From contig OZ037839.1 in NCBI GenBank assembly GCA_964035575.1, positions 1 to 64,000 on the forward strand: 64,000 bases of DNA, in the 5' to 3' direction. Position numbers and translations under genes: made by a program. Shown here piece by piece: positions 8,041 to 52,138 of the stretch. Numbering within the stretch: position 1 is the first letter of the stretch; each line of letters opens with the position of its first letter. The notes beneath the pieces were generated by a model, which worked only from the letters and a program-made list of their open reading frames with translations, was not told the DNA's origin and ran no database searches. The stretch comes from Rhynchopus sp. YZ270_cl-10 (Eukaryota).

Positions 8041-8042
8041 GT

Positions 8043-13005: not shown

Positions 13006-13756
13006 TGCGGGTTTGCGGGTTTGCGGGTTTGCGGGTTTGCGGGTTTGCGGGTTTGCGGGTTTGCGGGTTTGCGGGTTTGCGGGTTTGCGGGTTTGCGGGT
13101 TTGCGGGTTTGCGGGTTTGCGGGTTTGCGGGTTTGCGGGTTTGCGGGTTTGCGGGTTTGCGGGTTTGCGGGTTTGCGGGTTTGCGGGTTTGCGGGTTTGC
13201 GGGTTTGCGGGTTTGCGGGTTTGCGGGTTTGCGGGTTTGCGGGTTTGCGGGTTTGCGGGTTTGCGGGTTTGCGGGTTTGCGGGTTTGCGGGTTTGCGGGT
13301 TTGCGGGTTTGCGGGTTTGCGGGTTTGCGGGTTTGCGGGTTTGCGGGTTTGCGGGTTTGCGGGTTTGCGGGTTTGCGGGTTTGCGGGTTTGCGGGTTGCG
13401 GGTTTGCGGGTTTGCGGGTTTGCGGGTTTGCGGGTTTGCGGGTTTGCGGGTTTGCGGGTTTGCGGGTTTGCGGGTTTGCGGGTTTGCGGGTTTGCGGGTT
13501 TGCGGGTTTGCGGGTTTGCGGGTTTACGGGTTTACGGGTTTACGGGTTTGCGAGTTTGCGGGTTTGCGGGTTTGCGGGTTTGCGGGTTTGCGGGTTTGCG
13601 GGTTTGCGGGTTTGCGGGTTTGCGGGTTTGCGGGTTTGCGGGTTTGCGGGTTTGCGGGTTTGCGGGTTTGCGGGTTTGCGGGTTTGCGGGTTTGCGGGTT
13701 TGCGGGTTTGCGGGTTTGCGGGTTTGCGGGTTTGCGGGTTTACGGGTTTGCGGGTT
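13006..13756 (+). repeat. (TTTGCGGG)n satellite
   Basis: 8-mer array with occasional TTTACGGG variants. Confidence 0.97.
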
Positions 13757-16700
13757 TCTAGTTATTACGGGTTTGAGGGGTACAAAATGGCGACGCTGCA
13801 GGATTGCTGGATCGCGTGGTCCCAGTATTTCTGATAATACACTCCGGTAGATTGGGGCCCAAAAACGACGTAATGTACTGGGTTTGGATGTTAGCATTTT
13901 CTGAAGATACCTAAAATGGGTGCGGCATTTCACGGCTATTTTTGTGAAGGAATTGACGATATTTTGTGGTTCTAAGGTGTGTGTATTGTATGTGACGAAA
14001 ATTTCAAAATGTGACATAAGTATGAAATATGGCCAGTATGCCCATAAAATGAGGCCATTGCAACCCTGGAGGACCACATTGGACATATTGGGCCAAATTT
14101 AGGTGTGTAAGTGTATCGGCTTTAAAATATTTTTTTTCGTGATTTTTGGGGTCATTTTTTGGCTGGGAAAATTGGGCCACATTTAACCACAACTACTCAA
14201 AACATCAAATCTGTGGCTTTAATGGACTGATTGGGCGTTTTTATGACCTGGACATGGGGGTCAGATACCATTTTAGACATGTTAAAAATTGGTCAGAAGA
14301 CCCTGAGAGAAGAACCAAGGTCAAATTGACCTTGAGTACTGGGTCAAATTTGTGTGGGAAAAATGCCCAGTACATAATTGTTGATGCGCAAAAGTGCAAA
14401 ATTCCTTCAGCAATGGCTTCATATGACATTTCCATAACCTGGACATGGGGGTCAGACTCCACTTTTGACCACCTAAAATTTGGTCATACACATGTATGAG
14501 ACCCCAAAAACCAGGATTTTGACCAAAAAATTTTTCCCAGCAATTTTTGCCTACAAAAAATCGAAAAAAAAATTTTTTGATTTTGGCTCTCCGGAGTCTG
14601 TGCGTGCTGTGGTGGGGTCAATTTGCGCTGAGAAATGGGTATTTTTGACCTAAAATGCATGGATCAGTTTTTTCATGATTTTTGGTGTTTTTGGGTTTTG
14701 TGTGGGTTTTTTGGTCAGTACCTAATTTCTGATGCTCAAAAGTACAAAATTCCTTCGGCAATGGCTTCATAGGACATTTCCATAACCTGGACATGGGGGT
14801 CAGACTCCACTTTTGACCACCTGAAATTTGGTCATACACATGTATGAGACCCAAAAACCAGGATTTTTGACCAAAAAAAATTTTCCCACCAATTTTTGCC
14901 TACAAAAAATCGAAAAAAAAAAATTTTGATTTTGGCTCTCCGGAGTCTGTGCGTGCAGTGATGGGGTCAATTTGCGCTGAGAAATGGGTATTTTTGACCT
15001 AAAATGCATGTATCAGTTTTTACATGATTTTTGGTGTTTTTGGGGTTTTAGGTGGGTTTTTTGGTCAGTACCTAATTTCTGATGCTCAAAAGTACAAAAT
15101 TCCTTCGACAATCGCTTCATAGGACATTTCCATAACCTGGACATGGGGGTCAGACTCAACTTTTGACCACCTAAAATTTGGTAATACACATGTGTGAGAC
15201 CCCAAAAACCAGGATTTTGACCAAAAAATTTTTCCCAGCAATTTTTGCCTACAAAAAATCGAAAAAAAATATTTTTGATTTTGGGTCTCCGGAGTCTGTG
15301 TGTGCTGTGATGGGGTCAATTTGCGCTGAGAAATGGGTATTTTTGACCTAAAATGCATGTATCAGTTTTTACATGATTTTTGGTGTTTTGGGGGTTTTAG
15401 GTGGGTTTTTTGGTCAGTACATAATGTGCAATGCTCAAAAGTACAAAATTCCTTCGACAATCGCTTCATAGGACATTTCCATAACCTGAACATGGGGGTC
15501 AGACACCACATTAGAGCAGCTAAAATTTGGTCATACACACGTATGAGACCCCAAAAACCAGGATTTTGACCAAAAAATTTTTCCCAGCAATTTTTGCCTA
15601 CAAAAAATCGAAAAAAAAAATTTTTGATTTTGGCTCTCCGGAGTCTGTGTGTGCTGTGATGGGGTCAATTTGCGCTGAGAAATGGGTATTTTTGACCTAA
15701 AATTCATGTTTCAGTTTTTACATGTTTTTTGGTGTTTTTGGGGTATTGTGTGGGTTTTTTGGTCAGTACATAATGTGCAATGCTCAAAAGTACCAAATTC
15801 CTTCGCAATGGCTTCATAGGACATTTCCATAACCTGGACATGGGGGTCAGACACCACTTTTGACCACCTGAAAATTGGTCATACACATGTATGATACCCC
15901 AAAAACCAGGATTTTTGACCAAAAAATTTTCCAAGCAATTTTTGCCTACAAAAAATCAAAAAAAAAAAATTTTGATTTTGGGTCTCTGGAGTCTGTGCGT
16001 GCTGTGGTGGGGTCAATTTGCACTGAGAAATGGGTATTTTTGACTTAAAATGCATGTATCAGTTTTTACATGATTTTAGAAAACAGAAAACCACCATATT
16101 TTTGACATTGATGACAGGCTTCCCAGCACAAGTCAGTATTTAGAACAGTGTCGTTGTTCATTGGAAGCACAACGATTATCGCTTGCCACACAACTTTGTC
16201 AAACATGGGAAGTCTCAAAATAAACGTGCCTTCCTTACGTTAAGATGTGTGGAAAATAGCCAAGCACACAAGTACCATTATTTTGACACTGGTAGCAGTC
16301 TTCCCCGGAGATGATAGTAAATAACATTGTGCAAACTGTGCAAACTTTCTTATAGTCATGCAAACCTGAAAAATTAATAGCGGCGGAGCAACCACACCAC
16401 AACCAGACAAGCTTGCTACATGTTGGCGAGCTTTCTTATCCCTGTGAGTAATTTTGCGGCGGATCCAAACAGCTTAACAACCACAGTCTCTTATGTGTCA
16501 ATATTAGCGGCGGAGCAAAATATCCTTCCTTAAACACACTGCTAAACTGCTAAATTTAGCAGTTTTTGTCCAAATATTTAGTGGGTAAATCCTGCTACAT
16601 TTCAGTGACCTTTTCTGATAATCTTTTACTGTATCAGTCATGTCAGCAGCATGTATCAATAATTCGCGGCGTAGCAACGTGCCTCAAAACTACATCCTCC

Positions 16701-16866: not shown

Positions 16867-17781
16867 TGCGGGTTTGCGGGTTTGCGGGTTTGCGGGTTTG
16901 CGGGTTTGCGGGTTTGCGGGTTTGCGGGTTTGCGGGTTTGCGGGTTTGCGGGTTTGCGGGTTTGCGGGTTTGCGGGTTTGCGGGTTTGCGGGTTTGCGGG
17001 TTTGCGGGTTTGCGGGTTTGCGGGTTTGCGGGTTTGCGGGTTTGCGGGTTTGCGGGTTTGCGGGTTTGCGGGTTTGCGGGTTTGCGGGTTTGCGGGTTTG
17101 CGGGTTTGCGGGTTTGCGGGTTTGCGGGTTTGCGGGTTTGCGGGTTTGCGGGTTTACGGGTTTGCGGGTTTGCGGTTTGCGGGTTTGCGGGTTTGCGGGT
17201 TTGCGGGTTTGCGGGTTTGCGGGTTTGCGGGTTTGCGGGTTTGCGGGTTTGCGGGTTTGCGGGTTTACGGGTTTGCGGGTTTGCGGGTTTGCGGGTTTGC
17301 GGGTTTGCGGGTTTACGGGTTTACGGGTTTGCGGGTTTGCGGGTTTGCGGGTTTGCGGGTTTGCGGGTTTGCGGGTTTGCGGGTTTACGGGTTTGCGGGT
17401 TTGCGGGTTTGCGGGTTTGCGGGTTTGCGGGTTTGCGGGTTTACGGGTTTGCGGGTTTGCGGTTTGCGGGTTTGCGGGTTTGCGGGTTTGCGGGTTTGCG
17501 GGTTTGCGGGTTTGCGGGTTTGCGGGTTTGCGGGTTTACGGGTTTGCGGGTTTGCGGGTTTGCGGGTTTGCGGGTTTGCGGGTTTACGGGTTTACGGGTT
17601 TGCGGGTTTGCGGGTTTGCGGGTTTGCGGGTTTGCGGGTTTGCGGGTTTGCGGGTTTACGGGTTTGCGGGTTTGCGGGTTTGCGGGTTTGCGGGTTTACG
17701 GGTTTGCGGGTTTGCGGGTTTGCGGGTTTGCGGGTTTGCGGGTTTGCGGGTTTGCGGGTTTGCGGGTTTACGGGTTTGCGG
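16867..17781 (+). repeat. (TTTGCGGG)n satellite
   Basis: 8-mer array with frequent TTTACGGG variants. Confidence 0.97.
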
Positions 17782-17783
17782 AA

Positions 17784-17911
17784 TAAAGTGCCCTTGTCTG
17801 GACATCTAGCTGTTTACATACTCGCTTGACTAGTAAGTACCCCCTCTGTCACTGGATGTAGATAAAAAAAAGCGACGAAAAAAGCGAGCCTAGGGCTAAG
17901 TTGAACAACAC

Positions 17912-17976
<65 letters not shown>
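17784..17976 (+). mobile_element. 5'-truncated copy of the retrotransposon 3' end with poly(A)
   Basis: TAAAGTGCCC...TTGAACAACACC(A)~64 is the reverse complement of 18007-18184, apart from a small internal duplication (GCGACGAAAAAAGCG). Confidence 0.75.
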
Positions 17977-17978
<2 letters not shown>

Positions 17979-18032
17979 CGATTTCGTCTTAACATAGTTT
18001 TTTGTGTTTTTTTTTTTTTTTTTTTTTTTTTT

Positions 18033-18069
<37 letters not shown>

Positions 18070-19055
18070 GTGTTGTTCAACTTAGCCCTAGGCTCGCTTT
18101 TTTTATCTACATCCAGTGACAGAGGGGGTACTTACTAGTCAAGCGAGTATGTAAACAGCTAGATGTCCAGACAAGGGCACTTTACTATTGTACTGGCAAG
18201 ACAGTGCCTGAAAACACAGTTAGTGGCACTAAAATAGAAAGCATGTGGGACAACTACAACCAACACTTCCCTGCAAATAAGCAAAAGGGTAGTATGTGAG
18301 TGCAATTTTTCCCAAAAGGAAAAGGGGAGGGGATGGGACGGGAGGGTTGCTCTGTCTACCGGTGTAGTTTTATTTTGCTTTGTCTTGGGGAGGGGAGGGG
18401 AGGAGAAGGAGGGGATTGAGTGAGCCGTTTCCTCTGTAACACACAAACAAATAAAAAGGAAGTTCCATAATCTTTTTAGTAGTTTTCTTTTTGGTGAAAA
18501 TTTTTGAGAACTTCAGTAAGTGTGACCTGACCCGACTGACTGACACCCAAAGGGGAAAACAACAATAACGCACAACAAAATCAACAACAACAATGGTGGG
18601 TCTCGTGCTTACCTGTGGTGGTTTTGAAAAATGAAAAATTGAAATTGACCTTCACAAGGTAAAAATGAAAAACTAAAGGAGTGAAAAAAGGAACTCAAAG
18701 GACAAGAGTTCTGTACAAACTCTACTCTACTGCACAATCTATAAAAGTGGCCCAATGGCTCCTGATGCCACTGGCCTGGCTCTTAGACAGGTCTTACTCC
18801 GAGACTGCCCTCTACCCTCAGAGCCTCGTCCAAGGGGTAAGGGCCGTCGCTGGGGTAGACCCGTCCTAGCCAGCAGCCAACCAAAAATATTAACAAATAG
18901 GAAGGGGGGCGGAAAGGGGGGAAAGGGGGGGCAAACCCCAAAGGATGAAAAGAACCAAATAACAAAATAAAAAGGGTTAAAAATAAACATGGGGCAAACT
19001 GTCATTCTCTACACGCTTCTACACACACACTCTCACCCTCTAACTCTCTAACTCT

Positions 19056-22000
19056 CTAATTCTTTTTATTCCCCTTTTTCCCCTTCCTTCCTCCGCTCTG
19101 TCTCCCCTTCTGTCCACCACCGCGACCATTGCGCCCTCTCTGCACCTCCTGGGGCGAGAGCACATGCTGCGTCGCTTGTGCCACTGCGTCGGTGAACACG
19201 TTCGACGTGTTGGACCTACCCTGAGCTGCATGGCGCTGGGGTCCTTTGGGAGCTGGGGAAGGAGCAGGTTGGGCGGAGGAGGTTGCATTGCCACGGCCTG
19301 CCGATGAGGAGGAGGAAGAAGTGGAGACTGCAGGTTGGGCGATGGAGGTTGTAGTGCCACGGCCTGCAGAGGTGGAGGAAGAAGAAGAAGAAGAGGAGGC
19401 TTGAGGTTGTCGGCCTATTCCCTCTCGAGCCGCTCGTGCCTCATTCTCCCTCCTTGTACTCTCCGCTGCAAAGGCCTGCCCCCTACTGCTCCGGTTGTCC
19501 GTCAGGGCATGCAACGTCGACTTTGCCTTGCACTTTTCCTTAACCGACCACTCATGCAAACCCACCACCTTCATCACCTCATACCACTGAGTGAAAGTAG
19601 CGGTAGAGAGGGGGAGTGACAACAAGGGTCTGCCATCCTGTTTCTCTCCCTGACGGTAGTGGAACAGGGAGATCCACTTCGTCACAGAAGAAGGCACCGG
19701 CGACCCCATGGTGAGGCACGGGAAAAGACCCCCCCTCTCCGTCCGCTCCTCCTCCGTCCACATCCAAGCCTCGCTCTGCGCCCTCAGCAATTCCCTCACC
19801 CTCGCTTGCTTCTTCTGGTCAGGGATGCCTTCCACTGACAGAGAATGCGAGCGATCCGCCCCCTCCATCGCGGTGTCGAGGTCCTCCTCCTGCTCCTGCT
19901 CATCATCATCCATCTCCTCCACCTTCACACGCACCTCGGTGTCTGCCGCCTCGGCCTGTCGCCCCACCTCCTCCTCCAGCTGATCCCGAGAAGGGGTTCC
20001 CCAGCTGACCCTGCCTTCCCGAACGACGATGACCGCGCTGGTCTTGCCCCAGGTATCGCAGTATCCGGCCTCCCCTGCTATCTTCCTAACCGCCTGACGG
20101 GCGACCACCGACTCCGGGCAATCACCGTCCCCCTCCCCGTTCCCACTCCACGGCTGCTGTGTCGCCCAGCAGTACAGGAACTCGCCCGGGCACGGAGAAG
20201 CACCTTGAGGACCAAAGAGAGCCATCCAGTCGCCGACACAGTCAGGTTCGAGTCCTTCAGGGTCGTCGCCCACCGCTCTCCGCACCGCATGGCAGGGGAG
20301 GAATAGCCGCCCTTCGCACACCACCCCAAAGCACCGCCCGTATGCCACCATGCGTTCCGCCTCCAGCTGTCGGGAGAGGTTCACCGCCGTCAACAACAGA
20401 GTGGTCGCCTTCTGCTCCGACTCATGCTTAGCTGCGATGGCGTAATGCCTCTCGCAGCGTTGCCTGTCATACTCCGCCCGGAGCGACTCTCCTGCTTCGG
20501 GGTGCCGATCGCAGTCTTCCAAGTACTGCGCATGCATCCTCTTCGCGTCCTCTGCGAGTTCCCGCTTGTGCCTGGCGGTCAGCTCCTCCACACGATGCCT
20601 GTCCGCCGCCTTCGCCTGGTCCAGACGCACATTCTGTTCCTCCAGGAAACGACTCAACTCCTGCTGGCGGTCGCCAAAAGTGCCCCGAAGCGCGGCCAAA
20701 TCCGGTCCCCACGACCGACGATGCTCCCGCCGTACCTCCAGGGCTTGCTGCCACGCGTCCGACGCACGCTGCAACGCTTCCTTCTTCTCCTGGTCCGCCT
20801 TTTGTTGTTGCTGCTTCTGCTGTTTCCGTTGCTTCTCGTGCTTCTGCTGCTTCTGTTCTGCCTGCTGCCCCTCTTCGCCCGCCATTGGCGTGTCTACCTC
20901 CTCGACGTCCTCGCCCTCGGGAGCTGGCACTGCTGGAGAAGGAGCCCGTTTAGGTGGTGGGTCTCCGCTCCCCTCCGCAGAGGCAGCCTGAGCCGGAACA
21001 TTCGAGTGCAAAAAAGACAGGGCACTGAAATATTCCGCCCTGCCAATTTGCGACAGAGGGCAGTGCTTGGACCCCTGAGCGCAGTGCAGACATGCCAAGC
21101 CACCACACGTGTGACAGCAGAAGTGTGCGTCCGACGCATCGAAGAGCTTGCTGCATTGTTCGCACTGCAGGAAAGTGTTCGACGCCTCCGCCTCCCTCGC
21201 TCCCACAAAAGCCATGGGGCGCTCTGACTGGCACTCCCCCTTACCACCTGTGGCCTCAAAAGACAGGATGTGCTGCTGCAGAGCCGGGTCCATGGTGAGG
21301 GGCTCGTAGTGTCCCGGGATACTGCCGGATCCATCTGCCGCATCCTGATCACCCGAGTGGAGGAGAAGGACCACTGCCTTAGGCCGTTTTCTTGGCACCA
21401 TCAGAGAAGGGCGGGCGAACTCGTTGAGGATGACCACAGATACCTCAAGAGCCTCCCCTGCCCCCGCCACTGCAATGGCATCCGCCCACGTACGCTGGTC
21501 TCCTCTGTCCCCACTCGTCATCAGCCGCTGCCAGACCCCAAAATTAGGGACAGCCGCACTCGACAGATCAGCGCGGCCCTGGACCTTCTTCACTGCCGCC
21601 TGGCGCAGACCCTCCACCGTCAAATCCGTGCGCCGGGTGGCGAAGAGCAAAGCCTCAAAAGCACAGTCCCCCGCCACAAACGACCAAGTCACCTTCGAGG
21701 CTCCCAGCTTGGCCGCCTGCTCCGTCGCCCGAGGCCTCTGCGCTGCCGGGCACTCACGCAAAAACTCCCACTCACGCACCACATCGAGACCAGGCCCTTC
21801 CGGAATCACGGTGGCCGAATCGAACCTCCCGGTCCGCTTCCTCGGTGGCTCCACGTGGTCCGGCTTCACGTCCCTCTTGCGCTTCCCCTGCTGCTCCTCC
21901 GTTCGGTCTGCAGGACGACTCATATCGTCGTCAGGGTTCGCATCGTCACAGAGAGGTTCCACGGCCCCTGCACTGCGGCGTCCAAACCGGTCCATGTCCT

Positions 22001-25000
22001 CTGCAGACGGTGCCACATCTACCTCCACACACGGCTCCCGCTTCAGGGTGGCAATCCCTACACACATAGCACCCCGCTCCAGAAAGGAAGATGCGACCTT
22101 TTTCTGGTACGCCACCGCAATGCTCTCCCGGATGCGCAACTCTGCCGACCCTGTCAGGTGCGACGTCTGTCCCGTCGTCAGGCCTCCAAGCTGCGCAATC
22201 AAGAGGTTCGCCTCGTCGCCTGCACCCCCGAAGGCTTCAAACACAATAGGGGAGAACTTGGTATTGATCTTGTTCAAATCCCGCTCGTGCTTCTCCCGTT
22301 TGACCTGGCCCTGGTTCTTCGCCGACCAGCCCACAAACTTCGAGGCCCCTGTTCTGTAGGAAGGCAAGGTGGGGCACACGTGGGTGATGTCCAAACAACG
22401 AGGTCCATTTTCCGCCACTCCTACTGGGAGGTAGACGTCGCCTGGCCGCTTCTTCGACTCCAACTCCACTCGCACGGTCTCCTCCAAAGCAGGGTCCAAG
22501 CCCGCCCCTTGAGCAGCTCGGTACACCGAATCCCGCAAGGCGTTGTGGCGGGCGACGCGGTGTTTGGAGTAGGGGCAGCCAAAGGTGTGGTCGCCAAAGG
22601 AGTCCATGACAACCCTTTTCTGCCCCCCCTGACATGCCGAGCAAGTCGTTCCCTCCGCATGGATGGCCACCCCTAGTCGGAAACGGGTCACAACCGCAAA
22701 ATCCGCTGAAGACATCTGGTTCCTTGCTGAGGGTGTCGCCGTGAGGTACGTCCCGGAAAGCGGCAGGAGAAGGGACTTCATCCGTGCTCGGTCTCGCATG
22801 CAGAGCTGTTGCATCAACTTGTCTGCCTGGGCGTCAATCACCGCAGATGACAGACTCTGCTGCTCCAGGATCTTCTTCGGCTGGGCCCTGTCCACGTGAA
22901 ACGCCACCGGTACCCTGGAGTTGTACTCCTCAGCCGCGCTGTTCCATCTCTCCTCATCCCAGGTGAAGGCAGGGTCCAAGGCCTGCGACAGTTGCAGGTT
23001 CCCTGACTGAGAGGCGAGGGACGCAGCTGTCCGATGGTCCACGGTGCGACGGATACCCAGCCCCCCAAGCGCCACAGGAAGCGCCGCCTGCGCCCTTGCC
23101 AACTCCGGCAGCGCCCCATCCGGGTCATGCAGAAGCGCAGCCAGGCACCTGTCGATCAGGTCGTCAAAGGCCGTCAGGTACTCCGCGCACTGTGGGATCC
23201 CCCGCATGTAGAACACCATGCGGCAGTAGCCTTCGCAGTATCTCAGTACGTAGAAGGCTGCCTGGGAGTCCCCGAGGTCCACAAGGGCTTCCAGGTTGCG
23301 GCGGGAATCGTCCACCTTCTGGGCCATGTACTCCTCGCAGAAAGCCACAGACCCAATGGGGATGCCCAAGAAGTCGAACCCATCCACATCCAACAGCCGG
23401 AACCCGCCTTCACCCATGGCGTCCTGTCCACCCTCGTTCAACGTGAACCCCACGGCCTCGAGATCCTCCTTGGAGACGCCACCAGTGGAGATGAGCTCAC
23501 ACTTGTTCGCGTTCACCTCCAACCCCAGTTCGGAGCTACGAGTGCACAGAACCTGGTACGCCTCAAAAACCGCCTTAGGGGACCCCCGCAGAGAGCCGTC
23601 ATCGAGGTACCACAAAGTCCCATCCAGGCCTGGGTGCCCCTTCAGCTCTAGCGCCATCTGGTGGATGGTCAGGGAGAAGAGAAGCGGGCCCAAGGGATCT
23701 CCTTGTTGAGCTCCGCGCTGTGACCTTATGGTATCCCCACCATAAAACAGGCTGGAGGGCTCCAGGTAACACCATCGCACCCATGGGGCCAGCTCGGGGA
23801 GGTTCGCGTCGACCGCTCTTAGCATCGACAGGCGGTCTACGCAGTTGAACGCGTTACGGTAGTCAATTTTCAAAATGACTTTACCTTTTCCGCGGTTGCG
23901 CACGGCGTACTGCGAGATAACATCAGTCGCCACTGCCGCCCCCCTTGCCGTTGCCACCCCCACCTGGTTCCCTCGAAGAAGAAGCGTCCTAGCAGGCACC
24001 CGCACTCGCGCCGACAGAATCTTTCCCACCAGTCTGCGGAGAGTGTCCCCAACCGCAATCGGACGCACGTCCTCCTCCAGGCCCGGCCCCTTTGCAGGCT
24101 TCCGGAGAGCCACCAAGTTAGCGCCGGCGAAGAACTCAGCCACCTCCACTGGAGCATTTCCTCGTGCCAAAGACGTCAACACTGCGGCCAGCGCTGCCAA
24201 AGTGCCCTTAGCCCGCCTCTGTAGGCAAAGTGTACGAAGGTGCGCGCCCGTCACGTTCGAGGGACCCGCCGCCGATGACTTCGGCATGCTCCGCAGGGCC
24301 TTCATCACCTCCACCACTGTCACCGGTGGGACCTCCTGAGGCTGGGGCCAATCCGCCTGCTCCAGGGCCTTGGAGTCGGCAGCGGCTGGGTGCTTCGTCT
24401 GAAGCTTTTCCAGCGTCGCCGGTGTCTGTGGGGCGAGGCCGTCGCTGGTAGCGCAAGACATGGCCTGGCTCGGGAGTCCTGCTCTCGCTTTGGCGATGGT
24501 GCGCTTCCGTCTCCCTTCGTCAGTGTCCTCATCCGACCACCCAGAGGGCCTTGGCTTCCGCTCCTCTACCGTTTGCTCCCACAGGGCGACATACTGGCCA
24601 GCCTTCCAAGCCTCCAAGTCCTTCCCCCAGGTGCTCGTCAAACGTCGCTCCTGGTCCTTGCCCCCTCGTTCTGTCCGTGTCCGGTGCAACACAGTGAAGA
24701 ACAGTGCAAGGCGCTTCCATGCCACCTCGTCTTGGTACTCAAGGATGTCCATAAGAACCCTCAGGAAGAGCTCGCTGTACAGCTGCAGGTGTTTGTCTGG
24801 GCACCCGCCCTTCAGCTGGATCCTGGTGGTCCCCATGACTTCAAAGGAGGGGAGGTCATCCTGATCTGTCAGCATTCCTCGACTGGAGGGAGACGGAGCG
24901 GTGAAGCCTTCTTCGCCAAAGTGCACCGTACAGGTGTTGCAGACCTCCTTGCTCTGCGGCAATAGCATGTCGCACTGATCGTTCGCACAGCGCGACATGC

Positions 25001-28000
25001 CCAAGTGGCCCAACAGCTCGTCGGGGATGTACGCTCCATCCGCCTGGTGGCGACGCATATGCTGCAGCAAGCCCTTACGAGACAGGCCCCCGACCGCATC
25101 ACTCGAAGACAAAATTCCCGCTCTGCATCCATCAAAGGGGCAGAACACCCGATCCGCATTGATGTGCCCCAGCTTGGTAGCCAGGGGGGCGGTGGTGGTG
25201 GTGTTGGTGGGGATGATGCCATCCAAATGCGCTGTGTCCAGCACTGCCTGCCGAGCCTCCTTCCTCATCTTCTCTGCCATCCCCTCCTTGGTCTTCCCCA
25301 CCTCCGGGACAAGCTCCACTGCCTCAAAGTGAGAGTCACAGAGAGCGATGACGACCGTGGGAAGTTTCGCTTGGAAGCTCTCCGCGTACGACTTGGCGAC
25401 TCTTTTGCTACCAGGGGTGATGCGCACGAGGGGGTTCTCTTCCGACGCCTGCACCACCACGATGTTGATGCGGGATGCTGTCGCGGTGAGCTGAAGCCCC
25501 AAGTGGTTGAGGTGGGCCTCGCCGGTCACACCATTGGCAAACTCCGTCATGGCCTCCTGCGACCCCAGCACCTGCACCAGGCGGTTCGACACCTCCACTG
25601 CTGTGTCATACAGCTGCTTGCGCATTGCCCTCACGTCCGGCTGCGTGTCGTGGTCCCAGAGGTGTAGTGCCACATAACCACAATCATTTGTGGACACGTT
25701 GGGGATGCGTTTAGCTCCAAACTTCGCCAGAGTCGCGTCCACAGACACCGCTTGCTCTGTATACGCAGGAGCGTTCACGTTTGCGCACCCACCGGTCAAC
25801 GCAAACGGGGACAAGCTGATCGGGTGCTCCGGATCCGCAGGGGCAGGGCGCAGGTCCCAGGGCGTCACCGCTCGCCACAACAGCGACAGCAAGACCAGTA
25901 GGGACACCACCAGCATGCCAAATGCCATCCCGATCCTACGAGTCCACCTGCGTGCTGCCACACGGCGCACCTCCAAGAGAAGAACCCAGCCAAGTGGGCG
26001 CGCGACGCCGACCAGTGCCACAAAACCCGCCAAACAACCACCTGCGGACCATGCAACCCACACCCACTCGGCTGCACACACCGACAACTGACCCACCCCC
26101 ATCACACTGGCCCTCACCAAGCTGGCAGCCACTCGGATCCCTCCGGTCCATCGGCGCACTCGCTCGCTCGCCCCTTCCAGCCACCGCCATCCTCTCCGAA
26201 CGCGGCACAGTCCCCGCAGCACACCCACCCCCAGCACCTCCGCGTCCCGAAAAAGCGCGCAACCCAAAACATGTGGCGCTGACCTCCCAAGCTCAGACCC
26301 CACAAAAACCAGAACCCAGATGGCCACACACTGCAAAGCACCTCTCAACGCATCGGCGACCCTGATCCTGCGGAAAACTGGGTGCGCTGCCGGAGAGGGC
26401 GGACGATTGCAGGGCGCCTTGCGCCGACGGAGCCTGCCCGCCTGTGACTTGGTCCAGTTCAAGGACCGGTGTCCTCGTCGCGTCCTCCTGGTCCTCCTGC
26501 CCACTAGCCACAAAATGAGATGACTGAGGGTAGGGGCGCGTCTGTCCTTCCACAGATCCAGGACCGCGAACGACACAAACACTCCCCACTCAGGTGCCTC
26601 GACTACCCAGCAGGGGTCAGGTTGACGCAAGGAGGTGAAGACCTCCCAGAGGTTGCACCACCAGTCGAACCAAAACTCTATCTGTACACACCCCTTTTGC
26701 CACACCCGCATCATCACACAGCCACTCTGTCCTTCTCGCCCCTCAAGGCTGACCCCGAACACCAGCATACCTCGCTCACCACCCCCTAAGTTGTTGTTGC
26801 TGCGTCTGCTGTTGATGTTGGTGCTGCTGTTGGACCTGCTGTTGGAACTGCTGCTGCAGAAGTCTATGGAACTGCAGTTGAAACTGCTGTTGTGCCTGCT
26901 GTTGGAACTGCTGCTGGAACTGCTTTTGGAGACGCTGTTGGACCTGCTGTTGGAACCGCTGCTGCAGAAGTCTTTGGAACTGCTGTTAAAACTGCTGTTA
27001 AGCCTGCTGTTGGAACTGCTGTTGGACCTGCCGTTAGAGCTGCTGCCGCAGAAGTCCTTGGAACTGCTGATGAAACTGCTGTTGTGCCTGCTGTTGTGCC
27101 TGTTGCTGGAACTGCTTTTGGAAACGCTGTTGGAACTGCTGCTGCAGAAGCCATTGGAACTGCTGTTTAAACTGCTGTTGTGCCTGCTGCTGGAACTGCT
27201 TTTGGAAACGCTGTTGGAACCGCTGCTGCAGAAGTCTTTGGAACTGCTGTTAAAACTGCTGTTAAGCCTGCTGTTGGAACTGCTGTTGGACCTGCCGTTA
27301 GAGCTGCTGCCGCAGAAGTCCTTGGAACTGCTGATGAAACTGCTGTTGTGCCTGCTGTTGTGCCTGTTGCTGGAACTGCTTTTGGAAACGCTGTTGGAAC
27401 TGCTGCTGCAGAAGCCATTGGAACTGCTGTTTAAACTGCTGTTGTGCCTGCTGTTGGAACTGCTGCTGGAACGGCTGTTGGAAACGCTGCTGCAGAAGTC
27501 TTTGGAACTGCTGTTGAAACTGCTGCTAAGCCTGCTGTTGGACCTGCTGTTGGAGCTGCTGCTGCCGAAGTCTTTGGAACTGCAGTTGAAACTGCTGTTG
27601 TGCCTGCTGTTGGAACTGCTGCTGGAACTGCTTTTGGAGACGCTGTTGGACCTGCTGTTGGAACCGCTGCTGCAGAAGTCTTTGGAACTGCTGTTAAAAC
27701 TGCTGTTAAGCCTGCTGTTGGAACTGCTGTTGGACCTGCCGTTAGAGCTGCTGCCGCAGAAGTCCTTGGAACTGCTTTTGGAAACGCTGTTGGAACTGCT
27801 GCTGCAGAAGCCATTGGAACTGCTGTTTAAACTGCTGTTGTGCCTGCTGTTGGAACTGCTGCTGGAACTGCTGTTGGAGACGCTGCTGGACCCGCCGTTG
27901 GAGCTGCTGCCGCAGAAGTCCTTGGAACTGCTGTTGAAACTGCTGTTGTGCCTGCTGCTGGAACTGCTTTTGGAAACGCTGTTGGAACTGCTGCTGGAAC

Positions 28001-28982
28001 TGCTGTTGGAGACGCTGCTGGACCCGCCGTTGGAGCTGCTGCCGCAGAAGCCATTGGAACTGCTGTTGAAACTGCTGTTGTGCCTGCTGTTGGACCTGCT
28101 GTTGGAGCTGCTGCTGCAGAAGTCTTTGGAACTGCAGTTGAAACTGCTGTTGTGCCTGCTGTTGGAACTGCTGCTGGAACTGCTTTTGGAAACGCTCTTG
28201 CTGCTGCAGAAGCCGTTGGAACTGCTGTTTAAACTGCTGTTGTGCCTGCTGTTGGACCTGCTGTTGGAACCGCTGCTGCTGAAGCCTTTGGAACTGCTGG
28301 TGAAAAAGCTGTAGAGCCTGCTGTTGGAACTGCTGCAGTAAAGGCCTTTGGAACTGCTGCTGCTGCACACCAGGGGTGATACTGGGACCCCACCCAGGAC
28401 TCCGAAGATTTCGTTTTTGCTGCTATCACAGTTGCAGCCACTGATGTGGTTGGGCATACATTGCCTCTTTTTGGGGATATCATGGGGGGAAGGGGGGTGT
28501 GGGTTGTTATGACAACAGTTCTTTACTTTGTTGCCTCCACACACGTTTTTGTTGCTGCTATCAAAGCTGCAGCTGCTTGGGTTGTTGGGCTCAAGAGGCC
28601 TCTTTTTGGGGTAAAAAAGGGGGGGAATGGGGCTCCTGCCACTGATGAGGAAGCTGTTGTAGCATAGGAAGCTGCCGCTCCTGCTGTTGGTGCTCCTGCT
28701 ACTGCTGTTGATGCAGCTTATGTTGTTGCTGCTGTTGCTGCTGTTGCTGCTGTTGCTGCTGTTGCTGCTCTTGTTGCTACCGTTGTTGTTTCTGCTGCAG
28801 TTGCAGCTGGTGTAGCATATGCTGCTGTTGCTGCTGTTGCTGCTGTTGCTGCTGTTGCTGCTGTTGCTGCTGTTGCTGCTGTTGCTGCTGTTGCTGCTGC
28901 TGTTGGTGTAGCACCTGCTGCTGCTGCTGATGCAGACATGCAGCACCACCCACAACGCCCCCAAAAGGGCCTTCCTCCTCAT
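19056..28982 (-). CDS. Retrotransposon polyprotein (~3308 aa): S/N-rich region, hydrophobic segments, OTU-like, Zn fingers, RT, CCHC, RLE, second OTU-like, Cys cluster, coiled coil
   Basis: RT motifs VRPIAVGD, KIDYRNAFN, RGAQQGDPLGP, WYLDD (23598-23612), FLGIPIG and GGLG. CSAC..H..C followed by RHNALRD, RPGDV, LDITHV, KREKH and FEAFGG gives the RLE. OTU-like motifs are NDCGY...SHFE and GDCAF...WAD...GHYE. Start chosen as the first ATG after the ribozyme (MRRKALL). Confidence 0.92.
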   Translation of the reverse strand: MRRKALLGALWVVLHVCISSSSRCYTNSSSNSSNSSNSSNSSNSSNSSNSSNSSICYTSCNCSRNNNGSNKSSNSSNSSNSSNSSNNISCINSSSRSTNSRSGSFLCYNSFLISGRSPIPPLFYPKKRPLEPNNPSSCSFDSSNKNVCGGNKVKNCCHNNPHPPSPHDIPKKRQCMPNHISGCNCDSSKNEIFGVLGGVPVSPLVCSSSSSKGLYCSSSNSRLYSFFTSSSKGFSSSGSNSRSNSRHNSSLNSSSNGFCSSKSVSKSSSSSSSNSRHNSSFNCSSKDFCSSSSNSRSNSRHNSSFNSSSNGFCGSSSNGGSSSVSNSSSSSSSNSVSKSSSSSRHNSSFNSSSKDFCGSSSNGGSSSVSNSSSSSSSNSRHNSSLNSSSNGFCSSSSNSVSKSSSKDFCGSSSNGRSNSSSNSRLNSSFNSSSKDFCSSGSNSRSNSVSKSSSSSSSNSRHNSSFNCSSKDFGSSSSNSRSNSRLSSSFNSSSKDFCSSVSNSRSSSSSNSRHNSSLNSSSNGFCSSSSNSVSKSSSSNRHNSRHNSSFISSSKDFCGSSSNGRSNSSSNSRLNSSFNSSSKDFCSSGSNSVSKSSSSSRHNSSLNSSSNGFCSSSSNSVSKSSSSNRHNSRHNSSFISSSKDFCGSSSNGRSNSSSNSRLNSSFNSSSKDFCSSGSNSRSNSVSKSSSSSSSNSRHNSSFNCSSIDFCSSSSNSRSNSSTNINSRRSNNNLGGGERGMLVFGVSLEGREGQSGCVMMRVWQKGCVQIEFWFDWWCNLWEVFTSLRQPDPCWVVEAPEWGVFVSFAVLDLWKDRRAPTLSHLILWLVGRRTRRTRRGHRSLNWTKSQAGRLRRRKAPCNRPPSPAAHPVFRRIRVADALRGALQCVAIWVLVFVGSELGRSAPHVLGCALFRDAEVLGVGVLRGLCRVRRGWRWLEGASERVRRWTGGIRVAASLVRASVMGVGQLSVCAAEWVWVAWSAGGCLAGFVALVGVARPLGWVLLLEVRRVAARRWTRRIGMAFGMLVVSLLVLLSLLWRAVTPWDLRPAPADPEHPISLSPFALTGGCANVNAPAYTEQAVSVDATLAKFGAKRIPNVSTNDCGYVALHLWDHDTQPDVRAMRKQLYDTAVEVSNRLVQVLGSQEAMTEFANGVTGEAHLNHLGLQLTATASRINIVVVQASEENPLVRITPGSKRVAKSYAESFQAKLPTVVIALCDSHFEAVELVPEVGKTKEGMAEKMRKEARQAVLDTAHLDGIIPTNTTTTAPLATKLGHINADRVFCPFDGCRAGILSSSDAVGGLSRKGLLQHMRRHQADGAYIPDELLGHLGMSRCANDQCDMLLPQSKEVCNTCTVHFGEEGFTAPSPSSRGMLTDQDDLPSFEVMGTTRIQLKGGCPDKHLQLYSELFLRVLMDILEYQDEVAWKRLALFFTVLHRTRTERGGKDQERRLTSTWGKDLEAWKAGQYVALWEQTVEERKPRPSGWSDEDTDEGRRKRTIAKARAGLPSQAMSCATSDGLAPQTPATLEKLQTKHPAAADSKALEQADWPQPQEVPPVTVVEVMKALRSMPKSSAAGPSNVTGAHLRTLCLQRRAKGTLAALAAVLTSLARGNAPVEVAEFFAGANLVALRKPAKGPGLEEDVRPIAVGDTLRRLVGKILSARVRVPARTLLLRGNQVGVATARGAAVATDVISQYAVRNRGKGKVILKIDYRNAFNCVDRLSMLRAVDANLPELAPWVRWCYLEPSSLFYGGDTIRSQRGAQQGDPLGPLLFSLTIHQMALELKGHPGLDGTLWYLDDGSLRGSPKAVFEAYQVLCTRSSELGLEVNANKCELISTGGVSKEDLEAVGFTLNEGGQDAMGEGGFRLLDVDGFDFLGIPIGSVAFCEEYMAQKVDDSRRNLEALVDLGDSQAAFYVLRYCEGYCRMVFYMRGIPQCAEYLTAFDDLIDRCLAALLHDPDGALPELARAQAALPVALGGLGIRRTVDHRTAASLASQSGNLQLSQALDPAFTWDEERWNSAAEEYNSRVPVAFHVDRAQPKKILEQQSLSSAVIDAQADKLMQQLCMRDRARMKSLLLPLSGTYLTATPSARNQMSSADFAVVTRFRLGVAIHAEGTTCSACQGGQKRVVMDSFGDHTFGCPYSKHRVARHNALRDSVYRAAQGAGLDPALEETVRVELESKKRPGDVYLPVGVAENGPRCLDITHVCPTLPSYRTGASKFVGWSAKNQGQVKREKHERDLNKINTKFSPIVFEAFGGAGDEANLLIAQLGGLTTGQTSHLTGSAELRIRESIAVAYQKKVASSFLERGAMCVGIATLKREPCVEVDVAPSAEDMDRFGRRSAGAVEPLCDDANPDDDMSRPADRTEEQQGKRKRDVKPDHVEPPRKRTGRFDSATVIPEGPGLDVVREWEFLRECPAAQRPRATEQAAKLGASKVTWSFVAGDCAFEALLFATRRTDLTVEGLRQAAVKKVQGRADLSSAAVPNFGVWQRLMTSGDRGDQRTWADAIAVAGAGEALEVSVVILNEFARPSLMVPRKRPKAVVLLLHSGDQDAADGSGSIPGHYEPLTMDPALQQHILSFEATGGKGECQSERPMAFVGAREAEASNTFLQCEQCSKLFDASDAHFCCHTCGGLACLHCAQGSKHCPLSQIGRAEYFSALSFLHSNVPAQAASAEGSGDPPPKRAPSPAVPAPEGEDVEEVDTPMAGEEGQQAEQKQQKHEKQRKQQKQQQQKADQEKKEALQRASDAWQQALEVRREHRRSWGPDLAALRGTFGDRQQELSRFLEEQNVRLDQAKAADRHRVEELTARHKRELAEDAKRMHAQYLEDCDRHPEAGESLRAEYDRQRCERHYAIAAKHESEQKATTLLLTAVNLSRQLEAERMVAYGRCFGVVCEGRLFLPCHAVRRAVGDDPEGLEPDCVGDWMALFGPQGASPCPGEFLYCWATQQPWSGNGEGDGDCPESVVARQAVRKIAGEAGYCDTWGKTSAVIVVREGRVSWGTPSRDQLEEEVGRQAEAADTEVRVKVEEMDDDEQEQEEDLDTAMEGADRSHSLSVEGIPDQKKQARVRELLRAQSEAWMWTEEERTERGGLFPCLTMGSPVPSSVTKWISLFHYRQGEKQDGRPLLSLPLSTATFTQWYEVMKVVGLHEWSVKEKCKAKSTLHALTDNRSSRGQAFAAESTRRENEARAAREGIGRQPQASSSSSSSSTSAGRGTTTSIAQPAVSTSSSSSSAGRGNATSSAQPAPSPAPKGPQRHAAQGRSNTSNVFTDAVAQATQHVLSPQEVQRGRNGRGGGQKGRQSGGRKGKKGNKKN

Positions 28983-29047
28983 TTTAAAAAAGACTTTAAA
29001 AAAGCAAAAACCAAAAAACGAAAACAAAGAAGGACAAGACACACTAC

Positions 29048-29199
29048 GCCTTGCGCTTCGCCGGCCTGCACCCTCTACCGTTGCCCAGGGACCGCCCCGT
29101 GGAGGCGTACAAGGCTCACAATAAAACAAAGGAAAGGGGGAGGGAGGGAGGGTAAAAAGAAAGGACAAGTGTGTTGTAATGTGTAAAAAAATGGTCCCC
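29048..29199 (-). ncRNA. HDV-like self-cleaving ribozyme in the retrotransposon 5' UTR
   Basis: On the minus strand: P1 GGGGACC (29199-29193) pairs with GGUCCCU (29093-29087), with a G1-U wobble. J1/2 is 77 nt. P2 GCCUUGUAC pairs with GCGCAAGGC (one mismatch). P3 is GCC/GGC, L3 is UCCACGG, P1.1 is GG. GCAA precedes P4 CGGU/GCCG, and J4/2 is G-C-G-A-A with the catalytic C at 29060. Order and core nucleotides follow the HDV genomic ribozyme. Confidence 0.88.
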
Positions 29200-29480
29200 T
29201 GTAAAAAAATGGTCCCCTGTAAAAAAATGGTCCCCTGTAAAAAAATGGTCCCGTGTAAAAAAATGGTCCCCTGTAAAAAAATGGTCCCCTGTAAAAAAAT
29301 GGTCCCCTGTAAAAAAATGGTCCCCTGTAAAAAAATGGTCCCCTGTAAAAAAATGGTCCCCTGTAAAAAAATGGTCCCCTGTAAAAAAATGGTCCCCTGT
29401 AAAAAAATGGTCCCCTGTAAAAAAAATGGTCCCCTGTAAAAAAATGGTCCCCTGTAAAAAAATGGTCCCCTGTAAAAAAA
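29182..29480 (-). repeat. 16 tandem copies of the 18-mer GGGGACCATTTTTTTACA (ribozyme P1/cleavage-site unit)
   Basis: GGTCCCC occurs on + at 29193, 29211 ... 29464. One copy (29247) is a variant and one has an extra A. Confidence 0.95.
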
Positions 29481-29615
29481 TGTGGAGCTGTGGAGCTGTG
29501 GAGCTGTGGAGCTGTGGAGCTGTGGAGCTGTGGAGCTGTGGAGCTGTGGAGCTGTGGAGCTGTGGAGCTGTGGAGCTGTGGAGCTGTGGAGCTGTGGAGC
29601 TGTGGAGCTGTGGAG
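29481..29615 (-). repeat. (GCTCCACA)n 8-bp array, about 17 copies
   Basis: Perfect (TGTGGAGC)n on +, directly abutting the 18-mer array. Confidence 0.95.
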
Positions 29616-30459
29616 ATCACCTAAAAAGACCCCCCAGGGGTGAGCAGCAATGAAAAATGAGAACACGGAGAGGAGAGGAGGGAAGGGGGATAGTTTTTAT
29701 CTCGAAAAGAGGCGCTACGATGAGGTTTGCGGGGCGAATGTGGCAAGCACTTATCAACACGCGTAACATTGTTCCACCCTGAAAACGTAACCCCTTCCCT
29801 CTAGCACAGACCCACCTCTGGTAGTTGGTCTGCCCTACTGCCTTTTCTGCACCGTAGCTGAGTGCCACGGTGACAGCTTGTACCCACCTGCGAAAGAATA
29901 TTCGCAAGTTCCCTTCTTCAACTAACGTAAAAGCGTAACAAAACCACAACACACCACACTGAAAAAACATCAGAGCACGTACCTGCAGATCCACAGTTGT
30001 TTCACATACAGTGCACACACCCGAGAAGGCAAAGAAGACAAACATTTCACACAGCCCAAATTTTCATCTTTTTTCTAGATCTTGACAATTCCCACAAAAA
30101 TGTGGACCACATTACAAACCGATGCTACCCTCATGAAAACTTAATGTACTGTTGATTCTAAAAACGGGGTGGGGAGAAAATCGCGAATAGAAAAAATGGG
30201 TGAGATATTGAAAAAGTTGGAACGCTTCCTCACCCAGATCACACTTTTTTTTCTCGAAAACATTAAGCAAACAGTTGCCAACTGATGTGTCCTCACTAAA
30301 CTGCCACCATGTCTGCTTTCGTTGACCGCAGCACAGCTGCTTTGCTTTTGGTGCTGTGCTACATAACGGGCATCCTCAAACACAAATGGCACGTGAGCCA
30401 CCACTTGGTACTGCGAACCTCGCTAATTCTGAGGCTGAAACCACCAGCACACCTCATCG

Positions 30460-31794
30460 TCATTGTGCTCTCTGACGTTTGTGTGCTTGCTGGGGGGATT
30501 CGTCTCTGCTGCGTTTCGGATGTGCTTCAACCACAAGATGCCTCAGATCGCACTTCACTACTGCTTTGGACACAGCACTGCTGCAGCCGGTAAGGTAAAT
30601 ACTCTTCAACGAAGTGCAGTTCGGAAGAAATGGGCACTCAACAACCTTAACCCTGCTGAGTGGTGAAAGATCCAGAGTGGTTAAGCCTTTGCAGTCGCAG
30701 AGAAAGCAACCACCGCTTTCGGTCATGTTGCCGAGTGGTGAGAGATCCAGAGTGGTTAAGCCTTCGCAGCCATAGAGAAAGCAGTCAGCGATTTCTGTCA
30801 AGTTGCTGAGTGGCGAAAGATCCAGAGTGGTTAAACCTTTGCAGCCGCAGAGAAAGCTTTCACCGACGTCTGTCAAGTTGCTGAGTGGCGAAAGATCCAG
30901 AGTGGTTAAACCTTTGCAGTTGGAGAGAAAGCAGCTACCGATGCGCGTCAAGTTGCTGAGTGGCGAAAGATCCAGAGTGGTTAAACCTTCGCAGTTGGAG
31001 AGAAAGCAGCTACCGATGCGCGTCAAGTTGCTGAGTGGCGAAAGATCCAGAGTGGTTAAACCTTTGCAGTTGGAGAGAAAGCAGCTACCGATGTGCCTTA
31101 AGTTGCTGAGTGCTGAAAGATCCAGAGTGGTTAAACCTTCGCAGCCGTCGAGAGAGTAGTCACCGATGCGCGTCAAGTTGCTGAGTGCTGAAAGATCCAG
31201 AGTGGTTAAACCTTTGCAGCCTCTGAGAAATTTGCCATCGATTACTGCCACGTTGCTGAGCGGTGTAAGATCCAGAGTGGTTAAGCCTTCGCAGTCGGAG
31301 AGAAAGCAGCTACCGATGCGCGTCACATTGCTCAAGCCAGACAGGTTGATGCTTGTCAACGTTGTGCAACTGGACAGAAAGCTATCACCAACTTCCGTCA
31401 CACACGACACAGCACTCAGATCAAGTCTCGTTAATGATGAACCAGACAAGAAGTCATCCGGAATGACAGTCGCAACCTCCGCCTGCAGAAGCAAACACGC
31501 CACCTCAGGATCCTCCACCTCCTCCAACCGCTCTGCAGTGATGTCCGTCTCACCCAACGCGTGAAGCTCTGCTCGGGCTGCGTACTTCATATTTTTCGTC
31601 AGGATGATTGTGTCTCCAGCACTCAGCTGCGTGATGTCGTCTCCTTCGTCCTTCCCTCCGAAGCCCATGTGGAAGCTGTCTTCGCACAACCCCACTGCAG
31701 ACGCCACCTTCTGCCGCATCGTCTCCGTTGTGTCATCCACACCCACCTCGATCATGAGCAAGTTGTCGTCGTACCCCTTGATGGTTACGTCCAT
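30460..31794 (-). CDS. Ubiquitin-like domain + leucine-rich repeat protein (444 aa)
   Basis: Ubl-like N-terminus (MDVTIK...IEVGVDDTTETMRQKVA), then about 10 LRRs of ~25 aa (LTTLDLSPLSNLTRIGSCFLSNC). Confidence 0.85.
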   Translation of the reverse strand: MDVTIKGYDDNLLMIEVGVDDTTETMRQKVASAVGLCEDSFHMGFGGKDEGDDITQLSAGDTIILTKNMKYAARAELHALGETDITAERLEEVEDPEVACLLLQAEVATVIPDDFLSGSSLTRLDLSAVSCVTEVGDSFLSSCTTLTSINLSGLSNVTRIGSCFLSDCEGLTTLDLTPLSNVAVIDGKFLRGCKGLTTLDLSALSNLTRIGDYSLDGCEGLTTLDLSALSNLRHIGSCFLSNCKGLTTLDLSPLSNLTRIGSCFLSNCEGLTTLDLSPLSNLTRIGSCFLSNCKGLTTLDLSPLSNLTDVGESFLCGCKGLTTLDLSPLSNLTEIADCFLYGCEGLTTLDLSPLGNMTESGGCFLCDCKGLTTLDLSPLSRVKVVECPFLPNCTSLKSIYLTGCSSAVSKAVVKCDLRHLVVEAHPKRSRDESPQQAHKRQRAQ

Positions 31795-33387
31795 TTTGTC
31801 TTCTTTTTTGTGTCGCTCTGTTGTGTGGTGGGGTTGTGGGAGTAGGAGAGGACATCAGAACACTGAAGGAGGCAATCATGGTGGGAAGAAGGCACGGAGT
31901 GCGTGGAGGAAAGCAAGACCTGAAGCCGGAGGTGCTGACATGATGTATGACGTGTTGGGAGAAGTACACGAACCTGAAATGCTCCGCTTTCAGGCAAGCA
32001 GGGGAAGTGCTGAGGGACATGGCAAAGCTGACCTCGCACTACCAGGCTAGGGGAGACGCGAGACAGCAGCGCAGGGGACAATGAATCATTCTCTTGTGGG
32101 AGTCGTGAGCAAGAGGCTGAAACAAAGATGGGAGACGGAGTCTGAAATCGGGAGGGATTATTATTCCAAATACAAGCAGATGACTGAATCAACGAAAAGG
32201 TCAAAGAAGCTTCATGAACAAAAAAAAGGGGGAGGGGAGGGGGTAAGATTTTGTTTGTGTTGCGGTAAAAGAAAAACAAAAAGAGAAAAGTTGGTAAGAT
32301 CCTAAGCTTCTCGTTCTGAGTCACTCAAACGAAAAATAATTGAGAAACGTTTTGCCTTCTTTCTTGGTTGAGACACATCAATGTCGGCTCTGTGGATCAC
32401 TGAACCACCCATATCCTGTATCACATCGTTGATTTATTGTTCCCTGCGTTGACTGCAGGAAAGTTCGCGAACTATCGCGACCGGGATTTTGGGACTTTTT
32501 TAAAACAACAATAAAGACAAATAACGCTAATTCAATAATAGTTCAACATTATCCGGGGTAGCGAAACATCCCCACGGAAAAAAGGAACTAGAAGGTATCA
32601 TCTGCATGGTTGAAAGCATAACAAGGGTTGCGTGTCTGCACACTACCAACAACCTGCAAACCTTTGCTCTCGCTACAACCATCCGATGACACAACACATG
32701 AGTGCAAAGAAAACAAGAGGGTGCACAAAACGACAAATATGATGATACGACGCTAAGAAAAACCATGCACACCGGTCCTAACAGAGGTTGCGTGTCGGGT
32801 TGTACCTGCACACTATCAGCAAACCTCTCGCAGTCGACCCGAAGTCGCACTGCTCCCGATGAAACATTTTTATGAAAACAAATCACACGAGTTAAAAAAA
32901 CACACAGGGGTTACATAGGTAAACATTGGATGATAATAACACGGGTCCACTGGCAGGGGGGCAAAGGGTGGGGCGCGAGGAGCTGGATGCGCGAGGTGTG
33001 TAGCTCGAAGCATATGTCCCTCCATATGCAGAAGACAACCACCAGGAGAAAAGGGGTGTCCGCCGTTTACTACTCCTGTAGTTGCATCAGCGACACCCTC
33101 AGGACAGTGACAGCGAGACGGAGGAGGAAGAGGAGGAACAGGCGGACAATTGTCTGTAACTCTTGGAGAGACTCATCACGGAGGTCAATAGGGTCACTCA
33201 AAAAAGGGGGTTTTCTGCGAGAAAGTCGACGTCGCCGCAGACGACCCGGAGCGTGAAGCTCTTTCGCGCTCTATTTAGAGTGTTCGGAGGGGGCGACAAG
33301 CCTCCACCCCCCTTTCCTCCCCCCCCTTTTTGATAATGGGTTTAGAGACAGATATTAGTGAATTCCTTCCTATATCCTTAGTATTTA

Positions 33388-51771: not shown

Positions 51772-52138
51772 TTTTGTGTCTTTCTCTGTTTGTGGTTGTG
51801 GGACCAGGGAAGAAACAGGGAGCGCAACTCCCCCCCACGGAATCGCCAACTAGTTGCTCTGTAACCGTACGCAGACATGCGGCACTTTGCTATGGTCAGA
51901 AATTTTTATCCCAAAAAAATCAAAAAAAAATTGTTGAAATTTTCTGGCTTTTCTGAACTTTTTCCAGCTACTTTTCTGGTCGAGTAGCCATTTTCACTTT
52001 TCTGGTGTATGAGAAGTTTTCTGGGTGGGTGACTGGATTCTGGGTGGTACAGGGTGTGTCTGCCACCCAGGCACCTGGGTGCCCAGACACACCCTGGGTA
52101 CTGGTGTATTTTGGCCCAGGTACCCAGGTGCCTGCCAT

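Follow-up and report, generated by a model that had tools for sequence, protein, structure and literature searches.

A predicted HDV-like ribozyme preceded by sixteen tandem copies of its cleavage-site unit at the 5' end of a likely CRE/SLACS-type retrotransposon

How could a self-cleaving RNA fold come to lie behind a long tandem array of its own cleavage-site strand, and does the ribozyme build that array or merely sit next to it? This question is raised by the minus strand of the window analysed here, a 64-kb stretch of DNA that carries an intact non-LTR retrotransposon with an 18-nt repeat at its 5' end (Table 1).

The preliminary description had placed an HDV-type core on the minus strand at the 5' end of the retrotransposon, and this placement was borne out. 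All HDV helices and conserved positions were found at 29115-29048, 66 nt ahead of the first ATG of the frame encoding reverse transcriptase (RT) and restriction-like endonuclease (RLE). Measured against the HDV consensus, P1 forms 7/7 pairs with G1.U at the cut (-12.0 kcal/mol), P2 forms eight of nine and P3 three of three, L3 reads UCCACGG, P1.1 consists of two C-G pairs (2/2), GCAA is present and P4 has four pairs. A pairing check together with model alignment recovered the nested double pseudoknot, with P2, P3, L3 and P1.1 in the correct order, and the cytosine at 29060, earlier named as catalytic, occupies the expected place in J4/2. A consensus for R2 ribozymes is described in PMC3774820.

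A descriptor search over both strands of the window returned this single match, against two matches in 60 block shuffles of 46 kb, which corresponds to a chance of about 0.03 per window-sized search with the position at the element 5' end left uncounted; the match also heads a full-length retrotransposon at its 5' end. Scoring with HDV-like covariance models, the check put forward in the preliminary description, gave a divided outcome. Rfam RF02682, for which the gathering score is 44, gave the core only 24.9 bits (E 0.32); the short J1/2 of that model cannot reach the P1 strand of the arrayed core. Gathering-level Rfam matches numbered zero across the whole window. A home-made model gave 50.5 bits (E 8e-17; next best 9.5 bits), a value that is partly circular because the 15 metagenomic cores on which it was trained had been retrieved by a pattern taken from the core at 29115-29048 itself. 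Nested folding, a model that leaves pseudoknots outside, attributed no excess stability to the core (z 0.47) and a probability of 0.0 to the nearest P1, the pyrimidine tract of J1/2 pairing with the core instead; in pairwise duplexes, the true P1 reached -14.0 with flanks and was stronger than three competing tracts (-7.9 to -9.5). We regard the fold as a genuine HDV-like ribozyme, predicted to self-cleave and very probably functional.

Table 1. Features of the retrotransposon, its 5' arrays and its flanks, in window coordinates.
Feature	Position	Strand	Details
Flanking host DNA (dispersed repeat), bounding insertion block on outer side	29640..29743	minus	98% identical to 53451-53554
Leader between host flank and arrays, 24 nt	29616..29639	minus	weak degenerate P1-like strand at 29634-29628
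8-nt tandem array	29481..29615	minus	16.9 copies, 100% identical, no P1 strand; directly adjoins 18-nt array
5'-truncated 17th unit of 18-nt array, 12 nt	29471..29482	minus	2 nt in common with 8-nt array
18-nt array, each unit beginning at predicted cleavage site	29182..29470	minus	15 perfect P1 5' strands
Nearest P1 5' strand	29193..29199	minus	predicted cut between 29200/29199; 7 pairs with 29093-29087 including G1.U
J1/2, 77 nt from nearest unit	29116..29192	minus	long pyrimidine tract, could compete for G-rich strands
Predicted HDV-like ribozyme core	29048..29115	minus	P2, P3, L3, P1 3' strand, P1.1, P4/L4, J4/2
Predicted catalytic cytosine (C75 equivalent)	29060	minus	in J4/2, then GAA and P2 3' strand
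Intact single ORF, 3,308 aa from first ATG	19056..28982	minus	Ser/Asn repeats, C2H2, RT, RLE, OTU-like motif
Reverse transcriptase domain	23358..24077	minus	RVT_1, E 3.4e-15; QGDPL and YLDD
Restriction-like endonuclease motifs CCHC, RHN, RPGD..D	22389..22643	minus	compared with SLACS/CRE pattern in available text of PMC12857005
Poly(A) tail of element	17998..18068	minus	
Fold-back	17784..17976	plus	inverted copy of last ~130 nt of element and poly(A), joined to 8-nt satellite

Judged from its sequence, the element is likely of CRE/SLACS type. The architecture of that clade is present, namely a single ORF with a zinc finger upstream, RT followed by RLE, and a poly(A) tail, and the RLE motifs come close to the SLACS/CRE pattern given in the available text of PMC12857005. 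The closest named relatives, among the 120 listed of 184, were SLACS-like proteins of Diplonema papillatum (37-40% identity), and the solved R2 and LINE-1 proteins matched much more weakly (E 1e-8 to 7e-4; R2 E 3e-5).

The stop-free frame of the element spans 29696-19056; it stays open through both arrays and the ribozyme (28982-29696) thanks to the unit with an extra T, probably by chance. Two further regions of the frame, at about 25750-25300 (before the RT) and 21700-21300 (after the RLE) on the minus strand, resemble OTU-type proteases in one short motif and both align to relatives; Pfam gave no match on either. A trans-splice acceptor just ahead of the ATG was considered and dropped, its AG falling within 11 nt that are missing from other copies. 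No target-site duplication was found around the element, and as regards insertion in a spliced-leader gene, a trait of trypanosomatid clade members only, the spliced-leader core motif is absent from the window and no gathering-level Rfam gene was found there. The 3' end itself (17784-18184) carries an inverted duplication of 414 nt at 88%, in which two poly(A) tails face each other across a 30-nt spacer and which is either a real fold-back or an assembly artefact.

The array comprises 16 full tandem units on the minus strand, with starts from 29470 to 29199 and its end at 29182; Tandem Repeats Finder (TRF) reported a period of 18, 16.7 copies and 98%. The P1 5' strand GGGGACC is perfect in 15 of the 16 units, the variant at 29253 having C in place of the first G, and a second variant at 29434 contains one additional T. 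Two earlier statements, that the P1 5' strand lies within an 18-nt unit repeated 16 times and that the unit is in phase with the predicted cut, therefore stand as made: the array ends exactly in this phase, a tandem unit beginning at the cleavage site. The unit ends with a run of seven T and is bracketed by a 12-nt direct repeat, and further copies outside the array were absent from the 64-kb window.

Upstream of the 18-nt array, host sequence resumes at 29640 and its 98% paralogue at 53451-53554 continues with different sequence, so the leader, the 8-nt array and the 18-nt array belong to the insertion or its junction. The P1-like strand in the leader forms 7/7 pairs with wobbles, at -5.8 vs -12.0 kcal/mol for P1, and may be due to chance (such partners occur at 0.7 per kb elsewhere). 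For the 8-nt unit, the duplex with the P1 3' strand amounts to only -1.7 kcal/mol. An 11-nt local duplication in this copy is missing from contigs of three sequencing runs (X1, X3 and X7), and TRF listed 11 rows in the window with units of 8-18 nt and at least eight copies, with further arrays inside the element. The two adjoining arrays are nearly equal in copies (16.9 and 16.7), and in each of them one possible reading of the unit has it end in ACA ahead of a G; a third 8-nt array, at 52138-52371, likewise contains ACAG.

Other features of the window were recorded alongside. A telomere-like, G-rich 8-nt satellite occupies 2-8041, 13006-13757 and 16867-17781, with more than 1,000 copies at the window start; its G-rich strand points into the window, and short copies occur in host flanks, including near 53439 at the paralogue of the insertion site. 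The idea of this satellite as a telomere target found no support, the element not being directly inserted in it. LRR genes of the BspA type, whose N-terminus looks ubiquitin-like (PF00240 on some relatives), lie at 30460-31854, 47344-47904 and 50350-51849; 459 relatives of the first were found, the 120 listed among them being unnamed matches only, which indicates a large lineage-specific family. A short frame at 10845-11336 holds a motif resembling a Helitron Rep domain.

The element or part of it was detected in 14 of 24 listed sequencing runs, from 10 studies; no RNA run was among the listed holders, a fact with no bearing on expression. The core was present in 4/4 runs compared, from four studies (whole in three, part in one), and all four changes listed for it are confined to the L4 loop and include no compensatory pair, at low divergence and with one run perhaps being the window's own source. 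Divergent contigs of run X7 differ in 4 to 13 other letters, mostly outside the listed changes. The contigs of X1 and X3 extend 76 and 84 letters beyond the last aligned base, and the length of the latter fits both an array of at least three units and a single unit with a 12-nt partial copy.

Similar cores were sought more widely, and at least 139 were found in at least 129 metagenomic loci, largely microbial, with 104 distinct cores among the matches listed. Within 500 nt of these 104, perfect P1 partners numbered one in 68 cores, none in 35 and three, irregularly placed, in a single core, so that an arrayed P1 occurred in 0/104. Copies of the element itself were absent among the listed matches of the metagenome scan, a pattern spanning the junction of two units gave no match in viral contigs, and the translated 5' regions of 170 related proteins yielded no credible match to the arrays or core. 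Across 46 distant RT loci (503,355 bases, many without 5' ends), the descriptor produced seven relaxed matches and no strict one; one candidate core (L140) was rejected because the sequence around it, some 800 nt ahead of the RT match, looks coding. On these loci, the home-made model gave one match (E 6.6) and no credible core, and Rfam, run on nine and eight of them, nothing relevant.

Three side observations arose from these surveys. A dispersed metagenomic repeat family with unrelated flanks begins on or beside the predicted G1 of an HDV-like ribozyme whose J1/2 measures about 100-150 nt, and it looks like a ribozyme-headed SINE (loci L015, L020, L023, L032, L036, L037, L039, L042, L061, L066, L070, L074, L075, L085, L098 and L118). 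In two of its loci, L036 and L061, a tandem duplication of 47 nt spans the P1 5' region, some 130-225 nt ahead of the core, and so parallels the R2-type duplication with two copies. CRE-like RT elements also occur, several copies in some cases, in contigs of prokaryotic GTDB metagenome-assembled genomes (L131-L175), some of hundreds of kb to Mb, and these probably reflect eukaryotic contamination of bins.

The closest precedent comes from R2. Eickbush, Burke and Eickbush (2013; PMC3774820) described, for five species, R2 5' junctions that carry tandem duplications of 13-28 nt whose length matches the cleavage site, and presumed cleavage at either P1 of such duplicated junctions; a legend footnote records one junction with three tandem copies of a segment of about 20 nt. 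The preliminary description knew of no described multi-site arrangement, and this comparison does not support the view that none exists. As far as the available text of that source goes, the P1 array is an extreme form of the junction duplication already described for R2. Shared with R2 are a 5' HDV-like ribozyme, a long J1/2, a tandem P1-bearing segment sized by the cut and at least two candidate P1 strands per core; R2 units, however, are 28S target, usually in two copies and at most a few (PMC3774820), whereas here there are 16 and no rRNA target, and the CRE/SLACS-type protein of the element is only distantly R2-like (E 3e-5).

Other known systems resemble the locus in part. The ribozyme bearers named in the available text of PMC3774820 are R2, R4, Dong, Baggins, L1Tc and RTE. 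The Pr77 ribozyme of L1Tc/ingi in trypanosomatids, also HDV-like, cuts a non-LTR element of a euglenozoan out of long host transcripts, as is predicted here, but L1Tc has an AP endonuclease, a compact 77-nt ribozyme and one P1 (PMC5814959), in contrast to the RLE, the 77-nt J1/2 and the arrayed P1 of the present element. Members of the CRE clade (SLACS, CZAR, CRE1/2, MoTeR and FoTeR) share the single ORF with zinc finger, RT and RLE, the poly(A), and internal as well as 5' tandem repeats, with 5' repeat clusters in FoTeR/MoTeR and internal repeats in trypanosomatid CRE elements; in the available texts they differ in that here no spliced-leader gene or target-site duplication was seen and the ORF is much longer (PMC12278014; PMC12857005; PMC7367193). 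Cores of the HDV-F-prausnitzii type (RF02682) belong to the same sequence class in P3, L3 and J1/4, but mostly have a short J1/2 and one P1 strand. In the parts of the literature searched, with most subscription papers lying outside the search, reports of a CRE-clade element with a ribozyme, or of a long P1 array, did not turn up; the presence of an HDV-like ribozyme on an element of this clade and the copy number of its P1 array are possibly new.

For the origin of the array, the account towards which we lean, with a confidence a little above even, combines two steps: an R2-type junction duplication of the P1-bearing first 18 nt, and its later expansion to 16 copies at the DNA level, at the 5' end of a CRE/SLACS-type element with a predicted self-cleaving fold. 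A read-through transcript of a host gene cluster would fold the core, which would pair with one of the 15 perfect P1 strands, all of them transcribed ahead of the P1 3' strand, and cut once. Nearer strands would be favoured, giving element RNAs with 5'-OH ends that are ragged by 18-nt steps. The first 18 nt were likely duplicated once or a few times at the 5' junction, as in R2, and slippage or unequal exchange then likely stretched this seed to 16 copies in DNA, as the neighbouring arrays suggest. Retrotransposition would trim the array in each round and build nothing, and the long array would be a property of this genomic copy or lineage rather than something that the ribozyme cycle makes. 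For free 18-mers to arise, P1 would have to be exchanged and the RNA recut, and they would be a by-product at most.

Several lines of evidence bear on these two steps. The array end is in phase with the cut, which has a probability of about 1 in 18 for a random seed, so it was likely the cleaved 5' end that set the seed, as happens in R2. A loop-entropy estimate assigned 21-31% of cuts to the nearest strand and 1-2% to the farthest, leaving 4-5.5 units on average, and the ribozyme would therefore shorten the array at each retrotransposition. In a simulation that added one unit per cycle (20,000 lineages, 60 cycles) and assumed one cut per transcript, loop-entropy site choice and a simple polymer weighting, arrays never exceeded seven units; to arrive at 16 copies, either the DNA itself must have expanded or a cycle must have added several units. 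Expansion in DNA is the simpler of the two because it also explains the P1-free 8-nt array, the 11-nt local duplication and the other short arrays of the window, and RT jumping is still a candidate because it accounts equally well for a top unit that is truncated and an array end that is in phase.

We regard a plain variable-number tandem repeat as fairly unlikely. On this reading, DNA slippage alone would have produced the array, starting from a 12-nt direct repeat that flanked the cut by chance; only the nearest P1 would be used, and the array would leave the RNA unaffected. The 12-nt repeat that brackets the unit, the neighbouring 8-nt array without P1 and the 11-nt duplication missing from the X1, X3 and X7 contigs are all in keeping with slippage, as are the 5' tandem repeats known in the CRE clade from the available texts of PMC12278014, PMC12857005 and PMC7367193. 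Set against them are the exact phase with the cut, for which we would expect a random seed to account about once in 18 cases, and the loop-entropy weighting, under which the nearest strand receives only 21-31% of cuts.

A distinctly unlikely alternative reverses the roles and makes the ribozyme the author of the array. The core would cut several P1 sites and free 18-nt RNAs, and the RT, in a telomerase-like manner, would jump onto them or re-copy the terminal 18-mer, adding many units per insertion. The units are in phase with the cut, the top unit is cut short in the way expected of a last jump that was broken off, and addition of one unit per cycle could not reach 16 in the simulation. Once it has made a non-templated addition, the R2 RT jumps to another template (PMC8857657), a low frequency of 5' junctions is of the 'extra template' kind (PMC11331408), and the R2 junction with three tandem copies of about 20 nt is a further parallel (PMC3774820), each as given in the available text. 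This reading nevertheless leaves the adjoining P1-free array of equal copy number unexplained; it requires both recutting of cleaved RNA and jumping onto cyclic-phosphate ends, neither of which is supported in the available text of PMC8857657; and an arrayed P1 was seen in 0/104 of the distinct, largely microbial HDV-like metagenomic cores listed. Direct evidence for the repeat-synthesis loop suggested in the preliminary description was not found; the array without P1 next to the 18-nt array matches it in copy number, and 5' repeat arrays are a known trait of the CRE clade.

The 18-nt unit might instead be a host target sequence, as 28S is for those R2 elements whose cut lies upstream of their junction; it might be where a Pol III gene stops at a T-run terminator, and the ribozyme would borrow its P1 strand from this target. 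We consider this improbable, to a slightly greater degree than repeat synthesis by the RT. The unit ends in seven T, and its purine start resembles the 3' end of a tRNA acceptor stem. R2 also offers a precedent for a P1 strand taken from the target sequence (PMC3774820, in its available text). The window, however, contains no tRNA gene and no gathering-level Rfam gene, the unit occurs nowhere else in it, and the 3' flank, though rearranged, is without a matching target sequence. A chance or dead fold, or an array produced by the assembly, is highly improbable: the sub-threshold Rfam score, the fold-back at the element 3' end and the nearly equal copy numbers of the adjoining arrays would fit it, but the descriptor match has a chance of only about 0.03 with its position uncounted, the core recurs in four runs and the two variant units are not what collapsed or looped assembly would usually invent.

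If active, the predicted ribozyme would add the CRE/SLACS clade, with no report of one in the literature searched, and a probable diplonemid host to the range of 5' HDV-like ribozymes. The arrayed core offers a natural substrate for a matter on which Eickbush et al. (2013; PMC3774820) made a presumption for R2, namely which P1 is chosen, over what reach, and with what recutting, and this matter bears in turn on the growth of retrotransposon 5' ends and of long J1/2 loops. Only if the RT does rebuild the array from released 18-mers would the element represent a new kind of repeat synthesis.
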